The translations under genes and the position numbers were made by a program. A stretch of 64,000 bases of DNA. It comes from Escherichia coli (GTDB taxonomy: Bacteria > Pseudomonadota > Gammaproteobacteria > Enterobacterales > Enterobacteriaceae). The DNA lies in the NCBI RefSeq assembly GCF_013315695.1, contig NZ_CP054353.1. One strand, 5' to 3'. Shown one piece after another: positions 1,418 to 49,560 of this stretch (positions are counted from its first letter, which is position 1; every line of letters starts with the position of its first letter). The notes under the pieces are model-generated. The model worked only from the letters and a program-made list of their open reading frames with translations, was not told where the DNA came from and ran no database searches.

Positions 1418-1513
1418 ATGCTGGGTAATATGAATGTTTTTATGGCCGTACTGGGAATAATTTTATTTTCTGGGTTTCTGGCCGCGTATTTCAGCCACAA
1501 ATGGGATGACTAA
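1418..1513 (+). CDS. mgtS: small inner-membrane regulatory protein MgtS (31 aa)
   Basis: ATG at 1418; reads MLGNMNVFMAVLGIILFSGFLAAYFSHKWDD then TAA; below the 60-aa ORF-track cutoff, found by direct reading. Confidence 0.8.
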   Translation: MLGNMNVFMAVLGIILFSGFLAAYFSHKWDD

Positions 1514-1543
1514 TGAACGGAGATAATCCCTCACCTAACCGGC

Positions 1544-1579
1544 CCCTTGTTACAACTGTGTACAAGGGGCCTGATTTTT
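1544..1579 (+). terminator. putative rho-independent terminator downstream of mgtS
   Basis: inverted repeat ccccttgta / tacaagggg followed by a T-run. Confidence 0.5.
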
Positions 1580-1588
1580 ATGACGGCG

Positions 1589-1686
1589 AAAAAAAACCGC
1601 CAGTAAACCGGCGGTGAATGCTTGCATGGATAGATTTGTGTTTTGCTTTTACGCTAACAGGCATTTTCCTGCACTGATAACGGATC
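1589..1686 (-). ncRNA. mgrR: MgrR small RNA (PhoPQ-regulated); ends approximate
   Basis: minus strand reads GCAGGAAAATGCCTGTTAGCG...CCGCCGGTTTACTGGCGG followed by a U-run (hairpin terminator); matches MgrR as I remember it; convergent with mgtS. Confidence 0.55.
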
Positions 1687-1731
1687 GTTGACACAGTAGC
1701 ATCAGTTTTCTCAATGAATGTTAAACGGAGC

Positions 1732-18801: not shown

Positions 18802-21704
<2,903 letters not shown>

Positions 21705-33504: not shown

Positions 33505-33775
33505 GATGTTACCGTAGTATGTGAGTACCCATCGAATAGACACCAAGCAAAAAAGCTCCCGAAGGAGCCTTCATTTTCACTTTTTTAAATCCAACGACAG
33601 ACGGCTGGCATTTAAGTATTGTGAAATATTATCAAATGTAATCATCATTGATTTACAAAAGATACATTTTGCCCCGAAAGGATTCATGTCAGAAACATCA
33701 AAAGATGATGTTCTATACTGGGAACCATGACAACACGGGCATCTAAAGTGAATATGGTTTGTAATATTGTCTACC

Positions 33776-33988
33776 TCAAAGCGCCACTACATGAACAGCG
33801 GCAGGACCTTTAGGTCCGTTCTCAATACCAAATTCAACTTCCTGATTCTCAGTTAATGTTTTGAAATCGTTGCTCTGAATTGCTGAGAAATGGACAAACA
33901 CATCTTTGCTGCCATCTTTCGGCGTGATGAAACCAAAACCTTTTTCAGGGTTAAACCATTTCACTAAACCAGTCATTTTGTTAGACAT
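33776..33988 (-). CDS. cspI: cold-shock protein CspI
   Basis: 70 aa; [38 protein letters not shown]... (CSD fold). Confidence 0.9.
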
Positions 33989-34353
33989 AATTATTACCTT
34001 TTGAAGAAATTAGCCCTTGGGCAGAATGGTCCGAAAAAAAATATCAGAGAGAAAAACCAACAAGGAAATCTCAAGAGGTACAAATAATAAAATTATAACA
34101 ATGACTGCTTCAGATAAATTTGTAACAAACCAGAACACCATTAACGCATGATTAACCACCCATAGCAAGGATTACTTTTGTAAAGAAAAACACAGCAATG
34201 AAAGAATAGCTTTATTTATTAATAAAACGTGTCATTCTGATTAAGACCTTTTATCTTACCCTTAAGATTTCAGGAATTTTGGCTCATGGAAGAGTCCTTT
34301 TTATTTAAATTTTACATTCCGCGATGTAAATGTTCCGATTTAATATTACCCTA

Positions 34354-36295: not shown

Positions 36296-36658
36296 TTGAT
36301 TTTATTAGTAACAAGTATTTTTTATATTTTAATAATATATTTAAAGCAGATAATAAAAAACCCGCCTGAGCGGGTTTGAGATTGTGGTGCTTTTTGTGGG
36401 AGTCATCCACTTACGCACTTTGTTTTGCCATGCCAGCAGTTAGCTTCTGCTGTAAAACTATTCATGCAGCAAACCTGCACTTCACCACAATGGTTAGCAT
36501 ACTTTTCCTGATTAAGATTTTGCCAAATATGCTAGCCATTGTTTCATGTATTGGACCTCCTTACTTTTTATTAAAGAGATCCAATATTCACTACTCTGTC
36601 CGTATCTCTACTCAGGCATCAGCCTTCTTCGTTATCGTATACAGACGAGCGATGAATT

Positions 36659-36874
36659 TTAATCAGTAATGATGACATTTGCTGCTGCAGGACCTTTAGC
36701 ACCACTCTCTATAGAGAAGGTAACCTTTTGACCTTCAAATAAGGTTCGATAATTATCATTCTGAATCGCAGAAAAATGCACAAACACATCTTTACTACCA
36801 TCAACAGGAGAAATAAAGCCGAAACCTTTATCAGCGTTAAACCATTTTACTAAACCAGTCATTTTATTTGACAT
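36659..36874 (-). CDS. cspB: cold-shock protein CspB
   Basis: 71 aa; [34 protein letters not shown]... Confidence 0.9.
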
Positions 36875-37174
36875 TCTACATTCCTTAACTTGAGCCTTTC
36901 GGCATAAATGGTTTGCATAACAGAAACGACTTCGTACTTAATTGGAGAGACTCAAAGAAGGAATAAGTGAATAACACCTGAAATGAGAACTGCTTTAGTA
37001 AACTACTTCGTATATCGTCTGTTCTTCAAACCGACGCAATCATTAACGCATAGTTGAACATATGAAGCAATGTTTATTTTAGACATCCAGCCATCTTCAA
37101 CCCCATCAAAAAACTATAGCTTTCTTCAGGAACGTGTGTATAGTGCGCCAAGTTATCAGTATTAAGGAATTTTT

Positions 37175-40438: not shown

Positions 40439-40594
40439 TTACTCCTCAGGTTCGTAAGCTGTGAAGACAGCGACCTCCGTCTGGCCGGTTCGGATTCGTA
40501 CCTCGCAGAGGTCTTTCCTCGTTACCAGTGCCGTCACTATGACGGTTAAACAGATGACGATCAGGGCGATTAACATCGCCTTTTGCTGCTTCAT
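40439..40594 (-). CDS. hokD: Hok-family membrane toxin HokD (RelF), 51 aa
   Basis: minus strand reads MKQQKAMLIALIVICLTVIVTALVTRKDLCEVRIRTGQTEVAVFTAYEPEE; below ORF-track cutoff. Confidence 0.85.
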   Translation of the reverse strand: MKQQKAMLIALIVICLTVIVTALVTRKDLCEVRIRTGQTEVAVFTAYEPEE

Positions 40595-40665
40595 AGCCTG
40601 CTTCTCCTGTCAACGCAAAGCAGAAGTGTCACCTTCGGTGCGAAACAGAGATGTCATGCTTTGGT

Positions 40666-40953
40666 TCAGAGAATGCGTTTGACCGCCTCGCTATATACTT
40701 CCGAGCGTTCTCTTTTCCCAACAGAAATCACGAAAACGACAACTTTCTCGTCTATAACCTGGTATACAAGGCGATAGCCTGAAGACCGGAGCTTAATCTT
40801 GTAACAATCAGGCATACCACGGAGCTTGTTTGCTTCAATCCGGGGTGACTCAAGTACTTCAACCAGCTTCTTTTTCAACTGTTCACGTACCGTCGAGCCC
40901 AGCTTTCGCCATTCCTTTAGTGCCCGCTCGTCAAAATCCAGAAAATACGCCAT
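40666..40953 (-). CDS. relE: RelE mRNA-interferase toxin
   Basis: 95 aa; MAYFLDFDERALKEWRKLGSTVREQLKKKLVEV... Confidence 0.9.
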   Translation of the reverse strand: MAYFLDFDERALKEWRKLGSTVREQLKKKLVEVLESPRIEANKLRGMPDCYKIKLRSSGYRLVYQVIDEKVVVFVISVGKRERSEVYSEAVKRIL

Positions 40954-41192
40954 CAGAGTTCATCCAGCGTCACACGTACTGGCTTAGGATTACGAAGCCG
41001 TTCTTTCACTATCTCCACAAGTTCAGCATCTTCATCACTCAGGAGTGTCTGTTTGAACGGCAAGCGTTCATTGTCAGCGATATACTCGAGCATGAGACGA
41101 AGCGCTTCAGAAGGAGTTACACCCATTTTTTCAAGCGCGGCGTAAGAACGCGCTTTAAGTTCATCGTCAATACGCAGGTTAATGCTACCCAT
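40953..41192 (-). CDS. relB: RelB antitoxin
   Basis: 79 aa; MGSINLRIDDELKARSYA...; overlaps relE start. Confidence 0.9.
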   Translation of the reverse strand: MGSINLRIDDELKARSYAALEKMGVTPSEALRLMLEYIADNERLPFKQTLLSDEDAELVEIVKERLRNPKPVRVTLDEL

Positions 41193-41216
41193 GTCTTACA
41201 CCTCTTGTAATTACAA

Positions 41217-41522
41217 ATGTCATTACAAGTATCGCACTACAACATGCTTAGGGCAAGTCACGAAGGAAGTCAGAAAGTAGTCGTAAGAACGGTGATCACT
41301 GTCCGCTTTGTGCCAGGAGCAGCCATTGCTAAGTCCATCCTGTATTGTGCAGGTCAGCTCGTTTTTAAAGAGTCCGGCCATCATCTTACTGGTACAGACA
41401 CCATATACTTTGTGACGGTCAGGCTACATATGCACAACTCAACTTATTCATCTATTTTTTGCTTTAGCATGTCAGTGTTGCTTTCTCGTCGGCGGGTGAG
41501 CGGTGACCTGACCTGTCGATAA
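41217..41522 (+). CDS. ydfV: hypothetical prophage protein (YdfV-like)
   Basis: 101-aa ORF divergent from relB; name by synteny only. Confidence 0.45.
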   Translation: MSLQVSHYNMLRASHEGSQKVVVRTVITVRFVPGAAIAKSILYCAGQLVFKESGHHLTGTDTIYFVTVRLHMHNSTYSSIFCFSMSVLLSRRRVSGDLTCR

Positions 41523-41724
41523 AGGAACGTAACACGTTTTATGCAACACCCGCATGCGGCAGAAAATTATTGCCGAACGTTTACCCCTGTCAACAAGCTT
41601 TACTTTCTGAGGCGCGCCAGCCCGCGAGGAAAACAATCTGAACATCAAACAATTAATGACACAAGAAATACGATTAAAGATTTTTTTGTGCATGCCGATA
41701 GTGCTTTTTTAAAAGGAGAAATCT

Positions 41725-42057
41725 ATGTCTGTCACAATTCAGGGAAATACCTCAACCGTTATTTCAAACAACTCCGCCCCGGAAGGAACATCAGAAATAG
41801 CCAAAATCACAAGACAAATTCAGGTGCTGACTGAAAAGCTTGGGAAAATCTCATCGGAAGAGGGGATGACGACACAGCAGAAAAAAGAAATGGCTGCATT
41901 GGTACAGAAGCAAATTGAAAGCCTCTGGGCTCAACTGGAGCAGTTGTTAAGGCAGCAGGCAGAGAAAAAGAATGAAGACGCGACAGTTCAGCCTGATAAA
42001 AAAGAAGAGAAAAAAGACGATACAAATACCGCTGGCACCATTGATATTTACGTCTAA
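41725..42057 (+). CDS. flxA: FlxA
   Basis: 110 aa; MSVTIQGNTSTVISNNSAPEGTSEIAKITRQIQVLTEKL... Confidence 0.85.
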   Translation: MSVTIQGNTSTVISNNSAPEGTSEIAKITRQIQVLTEKLGKISSEEGMTTQQKKEMAALVQKQIESLWAQLEQLLRQQAEKKNEDATVQPDKKEEKKDDTNTAGTIDIYV

Positions 42058-42071
42058 GTGACAGCCGTATT

Positions 42072-42095
42072 GTGGCCCTCATCGGGCCACTTTTC
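42072..42095 (+). terminator. rho-independent terminator after flxA
   Basis: gtggccc tcatc gggccac followed by TTTT. Confidence 0.55.
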
Positions 42096-42493
42096 GCCAT
42101 CAGCCTTTTCTTTAAAGACATATTATCTTTGTATCATTTCTGATAGTTAACATTACAAGATATAAGTAATGGACGCACTCCCAATTAGTCTATTTAAATC
42201 GCCACGAGTTTAACTGACAACCCATGATCAATTATGAATTGCAACTATTTCTGTAGTCACTTTTGTGGGGACAGTCCACAAAACTGCCAACTTCCGCTTC
42301 TTGCTCTTAGCGGACATTAGCATAGGCTATTTACCATAACGCCTCATTACGCGCACCGCCCAGACTGACTCAGCGCGTTTCTGGCATATCCCCGGTAAAA
42401 CAAGTAACAAACCACCCGAAAATGAACACCAGAAACGCGACTTAAGAATCTACCCTATGAATGGATATGCACTCAACCGAATCGATCTTGGTT

Positions 42494-43807
42494 TCAATCT
42501 TTTTTATCGGGATCAGGCTTCTTTTTAGGTAACTTCGGGGGCTTAACTTGCTGATGACTTTGCGTTCGGCGCGTAAGCCAGGGATGGTCAGCTTTAGGTT
42601 TAACATAGTATTTTGAGCGTAAATCAATACGGGCATTATCCACTCGTTCATGGACACTCTTTTCATCATCCAGTGGTATAGGCTCCGGGCCATCAACATA
42701 CTTTTCCCAGCCCAGCGCTTTCCCGTCATACAGAACGTTAATTTCACCGTCAAAGTTCTCGCATACAGTAACAACCGAATGCCTAAGTCGATATCCCCGG
42801 CCCTCACTGCGTACCTGAAACGCACTGCTTTTGTACTGGAAAGTGAGATTTTTAGACAGAACGCGCTTCGCCTGTAGGCTGAAGATATAACCCAGTTCCT
42901 CTTCAGAATGGTGCACATCAAGATGAGCATTATCAGTAGTACGAGGCGACGTAGCGAACCGGTTGTTATAGGCTTCAATAAAGGTCGGCAACCATGCATT
43001 TGCTGTTTCAATATCACTGATATTCTGAAGCCGCATTTCTTTGACCAGCCTGTCCTGTAGTGTCTGATTGGCGCGCTCTACCCGCCCTTTTGCCTGCGGG
43101 CTGTTGGCATGGATTGGCTCGATGCCCAGTGTCTTTATCGCACGAGTGAACTGGGTCAGCTCACCTTCCCGCTCTGGGTTATTTACCCTGAATATACTGT
43201 GTCTATCAGAGTAGAGAGCGAGCGGTACGCCATGATCATTAAGGTAACCCCGGAGGGTTTCCATGTAAGCCCGGGTTGTTTCAGCAGGCACAAAACGCAA
43301 CGCCATCAACGCACTGGTGGCATCATCAATGAAAACGATCAGTGTACATCTGGGGCCTCGATTTTCAAACCAGTCATGAGGTGAGCCATCAATCTGGATC
43401 AGTTCACCGTAAGATGGTCGTCGCATGCGGCGTTGATATATACGGGCAATTTTACGACGGCGTTCACGCCATAACCCCTCTTCTATCATCCACTTTCTGA
43501 GAGTTTCAACGGATAAAGATAAACCGTGTATCTCGCGCAATTTTTCGCACGCAAACGTAGGTCCAAAATCAGCGTAACGGCCTTTGAGGAGTGAAATTAC
43601 TGTTGCTCTGAATTCAGTAGAAAAGGAATTATTAGGACGCTTTCCACGTCGGTGGGAAACCAGAGCAGAAGGCCCTTCATTTCTATACCGTTGCACCAGA
43701 CGTTTAACCTGCCGAATAGAAATGCCAATGCGTGCCGCAGCTTGTTCCTGAATAATCTGAAGTCGGTGGAGTTCCTTATGACTCATCGTAACAGTCTCTT
43801 TGATCAT
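42494..43807 (-). CDS. DDE integrase-core (rve-like) transposase/integrase-like protein
   Basis: 437 aa; N-terminal HTH-like region then catalytic core (...LIQIDGSPHDWF...VFIDDATS...LYSDRHSIF...QAKGRVERANQTLQDRL...); no terminal inverted repeats found by eye. Confidence 0.6.
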   Translation of the reverse strand: MIKETVTMSHKELHRLQIIQEQAAARIGISIRQVKRLVQRYRNEGPSALVSHRRGKRPNNSFSTEFRATVISLLKGRYADFGPTFACEKLREIHGLSLSVETLRKWMIEEGLWRERRRKIARIYQRRMRRPSYGELIQIDGSPHDWFENRGPRCTLIVFIDDATSALMALRFVPAETTRAYMETLRGYLNDHGVPLALYSDRHSIFRVNNPEREGELTQFTRAIKTLGIEPIHANSPQAKGRVERANQTLQDRLVKEMRLQNISDIETANAWLPTFIEAYNNRFATSPRTTDNAHLDVHHSEEELGYIFSLQAKRVLSKNLTFQYKSSAFQVRSEGRGYRLRHSVVTVCENFDGEINVLYDGKALGWEKYVDGPEPIPLDDEKSVHERVDNARIDLRSKYYVKPKADHPWLTRRTQSHQQVKPPKLPKKKPDPDKKD

Positions 43808-44141
43808 GAAAAATCCCCCAGAGAATTGTCTGGGGACATTTTAGAATGGTTCAAAGGGGACATTACAGCTTGGTGTTAACAATAGCCTGCTTCTCCGTGC
43901 CTTTCGGCACGTAAGAGGCTAACCTACATGTGTCTAGCATGAAATTGGCCTCAGATTAATGTTAAGCGTCTTGCAGGACGCGTAATGTTAACTGGGGCTT
44001 TTCTCTATCTGCCGTTGGTGTCCATGCCCGAGGCAGATAGCCTCAAGCACCCGCAGTCATTCTACTTAACTAAGATTTCCCCGCAAACCGTTTTTGTCCA
44101 GCACAGTAAATATCCAACTAAACCAATGGAGTTCGCTGTAT

Positions 44142-44360
44142 TTACCGCCAGTATTCAATGCACATGACCGCCATGAACACCCCTAAAAAAAGGGCATTTA
44201 TATATCCAAATATTAATATCAAAACATCAACTTTTTCCATATACCTTGCTGTGAAGATGATGGGCATACATGATGCGAACAACCAGAACGCAACAAACAA
44301 AAACTGCAATGCGTTTTTCATTATTCCTCCTACAATCAATGTGCAATTACATTTAAACAC
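44142..44360 (-). CDS. hypothetical small membrane protein (2 TM)
   Basis: 72-aa ORF, very hydrophobic; AT-rich context; could be spurious. Confidence 0.25.
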   Translation of the reverse strand: MFKCNCTLIVGGIMKNALQFLFVAFWLFASCMPIIFTARYMEKVDVLILIFGYINALFLGVFMAVMCIEYWR

Positions 44361-44575
44361 ACCTCAATTTGGCCGGACATATAAATATCTAAACCAGAAA
44401 AAATCACTTACATAGCGTTACAAACTCTTTAGTCTAAAGGTTCATCGTAAAACATTCCCCATACTTATCAGTCCGTTCCGCGCCAGGTAGCTCATTGCCT
44501 TATCTGGCAACCTGTAATCAGGTTTCCGCTTTTTCAGTTGGCTGGTCGTTTAACCGACATAGTTAATCCATTAAT

Positions 44576-44863
44576 CTAGTTGCCGGATGTTGGTGGATTT
44601 TCGCGTTTTAGTTGTTCATAAAAGTGCACAGCTTTAACCAGTTCTTCTGATGTAACTGGGACTGGTGAGGCAGTGAATAAGGCCTGAATTTGATAGTTCG
44701 GCCTGTCGTTACAATCCTCTTTTTTCGGTACATATTTCCAGTCACCAGACCACTACTTCCCCTGAAAGTCCGTAACGCCTTTTTTTACGTAGCGATATCG
44801 CCATGCCACTGGTTTTGCTTGCCCCGCCGTTTCATGCCCTTCCTGATAATTAATCTCGCTCAT
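44576..44863 (-). pseudogene. small early-region gene interrupted by an in-frame TAG
   Basis: MSEINYQEGHETAGQAKPVAWRYRYVKKGVTDFQGK - TAG at 44753..44755 - WSGDWKYVPKKEDCNDRPNYQIQALFTASPVPVTSEELVKAVHFYEQLKRENPPTSGN. Confidence 0.45.
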
Positions 44864-45473
44864 TCATCGCCCCACTCATCACAATATGCTTCGACCGGAG
44901 TTTTTCCCGCTTCATAGTCATCACGCTAGGATTCGACATCAGCAGCACTTCCACCGCGTAACTCACCATAGTCCATTAATAGTTCATCCCGCTCTTCAAA
45001 ACTGATGTTATATTTAGCTGAACAAAAATCAGCCACTTTGTTCTTCCTCATCGTCTTTTATTTCGTGGTATGAGTAATTGCAGTAGTTAAAGAAAATTTC
45101 TTATGCTCCGTCATGAATTTCCTCAGGTGTTGCGTCATCGTCCACTTCGAATACATCCTCAAAATCTCCACCAGCTATTCCCGTTTCAATAATAATTTTG
45201 AACTTTCGCATTTCACTACCGCCCTTTCGGGCGGCCTCCTGATGTTCTGAGGGTGCAGAAATCCATCCGGTTAAGGATTAAATTTTATTTACAGAACTGA
45301 ATTTAATTATTCAGATATACGTATCTGTAGCCTTACGAATCTACTCACTGGATGCCTCTTTCATAAAAATAATCCAGTGGGTTTTATCGTTTTTTCCCTG
45401 TTCGTTGACAGATAACAGGTTTTCTGTCTGTCAGTGCCAGAATCTGGCTTACCGGTATTTGCGTTTCATTCCA

Positions 45474-49502: not shown

Positions 49503-49560
49503 TTTCTGGTGACGTTTGGCGGTATCAGTTTTACTCCGTGACTGCTCTGCCGCCCTTTTT
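49503..49560 (+). ncRNA. dicF: DicF small RNA (cell-division inhibitor, ftsZ antisense)
   Basis: TTTCTGGTGACGTTTGGCGGTATCAGTTTTACTCCGTGACTGCTCTGCCGCCCTTTTT: hairpin plus U-run, matches DicF as remembered. Confidence 0.8.

Follow-up and report, generated by a model that had tools for sequence, protein, structure and literature searches.

Nonsense, deletion and frameshift lesions in a phrog_660-family gene of a Qin-like cryptic prophage in Escherichia coli

Introduction

The Qin prophage has been reported from 48% of Escherichia and Shigella strains. Mutations and insertions are known to occur in it, and it accumulates inactivating changes (PMC6379469). The integration of relBE into the hokD locus of this prophage has also already been described (PMC6379469).

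Intact counterparts of the genes considered here are present in strain 2014C-3097 (locus L003), which carries three small open genes encoding a DUF7167 protein of 60 aa, a hypothetical protein of 58 aa and a hypothetical protein of 171 aa. The last of these belongs to the phrog_660 family, for which the 171-aa E. coli protein WP_001289992.1 is an example. The family is modular, with many homologues that join the N-terminal part to a different C-terminal module, for example a DUF551 or an Ead/Ea22-like module. A database search with the intact protein returns 1,567 homologues, all of which are named hypothetical.

In this study we analyze the corresponding block of three genes, termed A, B and C, in a window of E. 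coli DNA, by which we mean the whole stretch of 64,000 nucleotides that was analyzed. An initial annotation of this window, made from its letters alone, had described a small minus-strand gene that is interrupted by an in-frame amber codon. We conclude that this gene, gene C, is very probably dead and constitutes a pseudogene in a decaying small-gene block of a Qin-like cryptic prophage. Its pseudogene status is already on record, as PGAP flags both gene C and the DUF7167 gene as pseudogenes in a RefSeq genome that is 100% identical at this locus. We provide a description of the lesions that disable gene C and its neighbors, of the distribution of the amber allele among E. coli genomes and viral contigs, and of the explanations that could account for its high frequency.

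Results

Genomic context of the locus

Strain YSP8-1 (NZ_CP037910) is 100% identical to the window over a 901-bp query, and its PGAP annotation was used to name the genes that surround the locus. Along the minus strand these begin with dicC (cro-like), a YdaT-family gene, a replication protein gene, a DUF977 gene and a SAM methyltransferase gene. The methyltransferase gene is followed by genes A, B and C, a hok/sok leader, an IS, flxA, ydfV and relBE, and then by hokD, rem, ydfU and ydfT (Q antiterminator). The dicA gene, the DicF RNA, dicB and ydfD are found on the opposite flank of dicC. This Qin gene set, extending from dicA to ydfT in the PGAP annotation and joined by the Rfam match to DicF, identifies the element as a Qin-type cryptic prophage. 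The A-B-C block is located between the replication genes and Q, which is the position of the lambda nin region. Thus, the designation of gene C as an early-region gene in the initial annotation has to be amended, as the block is not immediate-early.

We take the RelB, FlxA, DicC and DicA proteins encoded in the window to be the K-12 Qin proteins. The K-12 copy of Qin presumably lacks the A-B-C block, with flxA followed by ydfW/intK, ydfX and dicC. If K-12 Qin does lack the block, then the variant of Qin found in the window is longer and has lost less sequence, with the block genes preserved as no more than remnants.

At gathering score, Rfam also places in the window STnc560 at 1507..1720 and isrC at 21084..21206, together with two cspA thermoregulator elements at 33749..34134 and 36643..37035 that are expected for the Qin csp genes.

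The features of the locus that are referred to below are as follows.

49504..49555, DicF RNA (Rfam)
45029..45211, minus strand, gene A, a DUF7167-family gene (intact form WP_001224672.1) with an ochre mutation (AAA to TAA) at 45103..45101 (PF23768, PGAP and alignment A1)
44860..45036, minus strand, gene B, remnant of a gene for a 58-aa hypothetical protein (intact form WP_000753060, phrog_519)
44442..44863, minus strand, gene C, pseudogene remnant of a gene for a 171-aa phrog_660-family protein (PGAP, alignment with L003, phrog_660)
44780..44786, minus strand, A7 homopolymer in gene C, where the window copy is in frame and L002 has a +2 change (alignment A1)
44753..44755, minus strand, amber codon TAG at codon 37 of gene C (CAG, CCG, CTG or TGG in orthologues, CTG in L003)
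about 44591..44602, minus strand, junction of a 90-bp (30-codon) in-frame deletion in gene C (alignment A1)
44576..44578, minus strand, second nonsense codon of gene C, CAG in L003 to TAG (alignment A1, GGCAATCAGGTT in L003 versus GGCAACTAGATT in the window)
44544..44545, minus strand, junction of a 4-bp frameshift deletion in the C-terminal part of gene C (alignment A1)

The amber-interrupted reading frame

Translation of the minus strand from 44863 to 44576 confirms the frame that had initially been reported. It comprises 96 codons, starting with an ATG at 44863..44861 and ending with a TAG at 44578..44576, with a single internal stop, the TAG that forms codon 37 (44755..44753). When read through, the product is MSEINYQEGHETAGQAKPVAWRYRYVKKGVTDFQGK, the amber stop, then WSGDWKYVPKK...ENPPTSGN and the closing stop. 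Such a pattern is not statistically special by itself. If one counts frames that open with ATG, span 95 codons or more, contain exactly one internal stop and have halves of at least 30 codons each, the window has 96, and even mononucleotide shuffles of the window contain 27-37 each.

What sets this frame apart is homology. The initial annotation had proposed a search with the read-through product, with chance halves as the outcome that would dismiss the idea, as well as an inspection of the equivalent codon in orthologous prophages. The read-through product matches phrog_660 (E=5.7e-29), with residues 2-93, and hence sequence to either side of the stop, aligned to profile positions 34-118 of 193. 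As this match extends across the TAG, gene C is a genuine phage gene, and the number of homologues of its intact form likewise refutes the notion of chance halves. At the position of the TAG other prophages have the sense codons CAG, CCG, CTG and TGG. The view that a real small phage gene has been cut by an amber codon is therefore upheld by the profile match and by intact 171-aa orthologues. The expected product of about 95 aa is not, since the ancestral gene encodes 171 aa and the TAG at 44578..44576, taken at first for the natural terminus, is a second nonsense mutation.

Lesions in gene C

We aligned the window base by base with the intact copy in L003 (alignment A1, which also includes L002). 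Over the first 311 bp gene C shares 90% DNA identity with the intact phrog_660 gene of L003, and it resembles this gene further in being placed after the DUF7167 and 58-aa genes and in having an ATGA start/stop overlap. The remnant begins with the ATG at 44863 and ends with the ancestral TGA at 44444..44442. Unlike intact phrog_660 members, it carries two nonsense codons, a 30-codon deletion and a 4-bp frameshift, and no open frame is left. The 90-bp deletion took place between the imperfect direct repeats GAGAATCCGCCA and GACAATCCACCA of the intact gene, and the 4-bp deletion is evident as AAACGAC----CAGCC in the window versus AAACGGCTGGTCAGCC in L003. Downstream of the amber codon there is no in-frame ATG, GTG or TTG start that yields an ORF of at least 25 aa. 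PGAP has labeled the matching interval in YSP8-1 as 'hypothetical protein; frameshifted; internal stop', and the same pseudogene label is found in further strains. The 90-bp deletion on its own may be tolerated, as P0037, a database protein of 141 aa, lacks the same 30 codons but is otherwise encoded by an open frame.

Genes A and B

The genes that precede gene C have suffered similarly. The ochre mutation in gene A leaves a 36-aa ORF in place of 60 aa. This stub still scores 29.9 bits against PF23768 (cut-off 24.4) over profile positions 1-34 of 60, as compared to 53.6 bits over positions 1-60 for an intact orthologue. In the 100%-identical genome, PGAP lists gene A as 'DUF7167 family protein; internal stop', two positions upstream of gene C. 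In gene B the original ATG is now GTG (45036..45034) and a TGG codon has become TAG at 44928..44926, with the ancestral stop overlapping the start of gene C in the ATGA motif. A new ATG five codons upstream (45051) opens a 41-aa ORF. This is the short minus-strand ORF quoted in the initial annotation (MRKNKVADF...DVES), which we located at 45051..44926 on the minus strand as one of the several said to lie nearby. The gene B interval is without PGAP annotation in the identical genome.

Thus, the three consecutive genes A, B and C are all inactivated and each has a nonsense mutation, which bears out the suggestion of a decaying block of small genes. Comparing the window with intact copies of genes A and B gives 13-15 nonsynonymous and 13-20 synonymous substitutions, versus 2 and 11, respectively, between two intact copies. 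These counts fit relaxed constraint along the branch leading to the window, although they are suggestive only.

The phrog_660 protein family

The intact 171-aa orthologue of gene C matches phrog_660 over residues 2-171 with E=5.6e-72. Searches for a more informative relationship returned little. Against Pfam the intact protein gives only a sub-threshold hit to AphA_like (14.7 bits, cut-off 27), it matches no NCBIfam model and no PADLOC defense-system model, and a profile search of PDB sequences finds nothing at E<=1. An AlphaFold2 model based on a 38-sequence alignment is poor overall (mean pLDDT 56, pTM 0.34). Its sole confident part is a small beta domain at approximately residues 20-64 (pLDDT about 80), with helices thereafter, and a Foldseek search of the PDB with the model yields no match better than E=1.5. 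As codon 37 falls in the middle of this predicted domain, a 36-aa stub would not be expected to fold as a beta domain.

Frequency and history of the TAG allele

Of 5,426 complete E. coli genomes, 2,590 have a match to the 901-bp neighborhood of the amber codon, and in 507 the identity reaches 99% or more. An exact 59-mer centered on the TAG is present in 879 of the 5,426, and another 279 have it with one or two mismatches. Three of these near matches were sampled and all three retain the TAG, the difference being a GGG to GGA change two codons upstream. The allele total is therefore in the range of about 16-21%. The TAG allele is thus both old and common, with strains YSP8-1 and JJ1887 as examples of its carriers.

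To survey codon 37 we used a pattern search of IMG/VR in which the codon was left free, covering at least 120 viral or prophage contigs, to which three RefSeq loci were added for 123 loci. Among the matches listed, the codon is TAG in 59, CAG in 31, CCG in 27, CTG in 3 and TGG in 3, so that in functional copies the position is variable, coding for Gln, Pro, Leu or Trp. All 59 scorable TAG alleles among the matches listed are broken, as compared to 59 of 60 CAG, CCG and CTG alleles that are intact with a frame of at least 118 aa. As judged from translations, the 90-bp deletion is present in every TAG-class copy among the matches listed, and L002-type TAG sub-lineages have an additional larger deletion.

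Many TAG alleles have also lost the frame before the amber codon is reached. Among the matches listed, 38 of 59 carry an extra frameshift between the start codon and the TAG, and these are of three kinds. The start-to-codon offset is 108 in 21 loci, 109 (+1) in 9, 107 (-1) in 3 and 110 (+2) in 26. Length changes of +1, -1 and +2 in this interval recur in L002-, L008-, L037- and L026-type loci. The A7 run is located 25 nt upstream of the TAG, and the occurrence of the +2 change within it points to this run as an apparent homopolymer hot spot for length changes. In the +2 form an alternative frame of 85 codons is opened, to which PGAP assigns pseudogene status.

Over the 58 collinear codons of gene C, dN/dS is 0.25 for the TAG class versus 0.24 for the intact class, a comparison that involves only 10 variant codons. 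Recombination with intact alleles could have brought variation that was already filtered by selection into the TAG class. The regions that flank the TAG allele are also of two types, as genes A and B are broken in 21 loci (the window type) and intact in about 35 among the matches listed. These two types imply that the dead gene C segment is older than the lesions in genes A and B, or that it has moved between prophages by recombination.

Three IMG/VR loci (L026, L059 and L107) have TGG in place of the TAG and a downstream part of full length. All three carry the +2 shift and have immediate flanks in common with L002-type TAG alleles (TCT as the next codon and a KK variant). These TGG alleles could be relics of the haplotype that preceded the TAG, TAG-to-TGG revertants, or recombinants. 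As they share the TAG haplotype and all have the +2 shift, a TGG-to-TAG origin cannot be separated from reversion or recombination. The ancestral codon 37 was probably either TGG or CAG, each of which is one step from TAG.

The split hok/sok locus and neighboring sequences

Several observations were made on the sequences that follow gene C. The interval from the gene C remnant to the sok element contains a small, unannotated hydrophobic ORF at 44142..44360 on the minus strand, which encodes 72 aa from a GTG or 59 aa from an ATG (MKNALQFLFVAFWLFASCMPIIF...). L002-type loci have this ORF but L003 does not, and it has no Pfam, PHROG or PADLOC match. Beyond it the hok/sok locus is split, with the sok/leader element (RF01794, 43881..44052, minus strand) set apart from the hokD coding sequence, which starts with the ATG at 40594..40592. 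In L002 and L003 leader and hokD are contiguous. The 3,273-bp segment between them in the window (43881..40609) contains an ISNCY-family transposase ORF, flxA, ydfV, relB and relE. A 15-bp direct repeat, GGAGAAGCAGGCTAT, borders this segment at 43896..43882 and 40607..40593 and takes in the hokD ribosome-binding site and the first two bases of the hokD ATG. No convincing terminal inverted repeats were found at the boundaries of the IS next to the gene C locus.

The transposase ORF (42494..43807, minus strand) is uninterrupted in the window and encodes 437 aa, with the ISNCY assignment taken from the PGAP name. In YSP8-1, PGAP calls this transposase incomplete and annotates a 49-aa YdfW that equals the last 49 codons of the window ORF. 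'YdfW' therefore looks like a C-terminal transposase fragment and not a gene of its own.

Discussion

The arrangement of lesions is best explained by the staged decay of a gene for a lambdoid-phage protein of the phrog_660 family. The nonsense mutation at codon 37 would have inactivated gene C, and decay would have continued with a repeat-mediated 90-bp in-frame deletion, a second nonsense change (CAG to TAG) and a 4-bp frameshift. The likely order is that the TAG and the 90-bp deletion came first and that lineage-specific frameshifts were added later. At most, gene C would now yield a 36-residue N-terminal fragment that ends inside the small beta domain, with presumably nothing translatable in the original frame downstream of the TAG. 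We infer that the allele owes its frequency to a defective prophage segment being inherited and recombined, rather than to selection for the allele. The presence of Qin in 48% of strains (PMC6379469) accounts for this high frequency without selection being invoked.

Other explanations need to be weighed against decay. That the two halves are unrelated chance ORFs, or that the TAG is an assembly artefact or sequencing error, is virtually inconceivable. Frames of this kind do arise in each shuffled window, but the family homology is strong on either side of the stop and the identical TAG-bearing 59-mer is found in 879 independent complete genomes, and on these two grounds we reject both chance and sequencing error. 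Programmed recoding, in which the TAG is read through or is bypassed by frameshifting at the A7 run so that gene C remains functional, would be in line with the commonness of the allele, with the A-rich and slippery-looking sequence 25 nt upstream of the stop, and with a dN/dS that is not raised in the TAG class. However, the window frame contains a second TAG and the 4-bp frameshift farther downstream, and intact relatives have sense codons at the TAG position. Additionally, a conserved recoding signal would not tolerate the loss of frame upstream of the TAG that has occurred in three different ways in 38 of the 59 TAG alleles listed. A TAG that is followed by T constitutes a strong and efficient termination context in E. 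coli, and the base after the gene C stop is T. Nor is there a suppressor tRNA within the 64-kb window, as ARAGORN detects no tRNA or tmRNA gene there. We consider recoding to be exceedingly unlikely.

The high allele frequency could in principle also arise from selection for loss of the gene or for a residual function. One version holds that the lysogen suffers a cost or toxicity from the intact phrog_660 protein, and perhaps from the products of genes A and B, such that knock-outs were selected and spread. It would explain why the TAG allele has reached about 16-21% of complete E. coli genomes and why three adjacent genes have each been hit by a nonsense mutation in the window lineage. The different flanking haplotypes (genes A and B intact in about 35 and broken in 21 of the loci listed) suggest movement by recombination. 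Toxic small genes are also possible in this prophage family, with DicB and YdfD encoded by the same prophage. DicB and DicF are reportedly toxic on overexpression (bioRxiv 10.1101/2023.04.14.536235). Yet the viral-contig sample contains intact and TAG alleles in similar numbers (64 versus 59, respectively, among the matches listed), so the intact gene is clearly tolerated. A high frequency is in any case expected for an allele that was fixed in an old, vertically inherited defective prophage, and the gene C family has no PADLOC defense-system match. We therefore regard adaptive loss as quite improbable. There is an equally slim chance that the knock-out spread to about one-fifth of the sequenced genomes by benefiting the lysogen or that the 36-aa stub gained a function of its own. 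Were adaptive loss true, the intact product would impose a cost or be toxic, in the manner of other small proteins of this prophage.

Under the preferred reading of gene decay, the locus represents a routine event in a defective prophage and is thereby removed as a candidate for recoding, for suppressor dependence or for a new small-protein system. It does provide a worked example of staged decay in which one old, shared nonsense allele appears to have been followed by independent frameshifts, with a homopolymer as an apparent hot spot. Members of a modular phage family of 171 aa abound in E. coli prophages, and what looked like a gene of 95 aa is the first part of one of them. For annotation in general, long frames with one internal stop arise by chance approximately 30 times per 64 kb, and they should be scored only after a homology check.

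Comparison with described systems supports this assessment. Laboratory amber mutants of lambdoid phages likewise have a single in-frame TAG in a phage gene, and those mutants depend on suppressors. In contrast, the TAG in gene C occurs naturally, in hundreds of wild isolates, other disabling lesions go with it, and the window has no suppressor tRNA. The closer likeness is to the pseudogenes of Qin ('grounded') prophages, as the window belongs to the same prophage type and Qin genes flank the A-B-C block.
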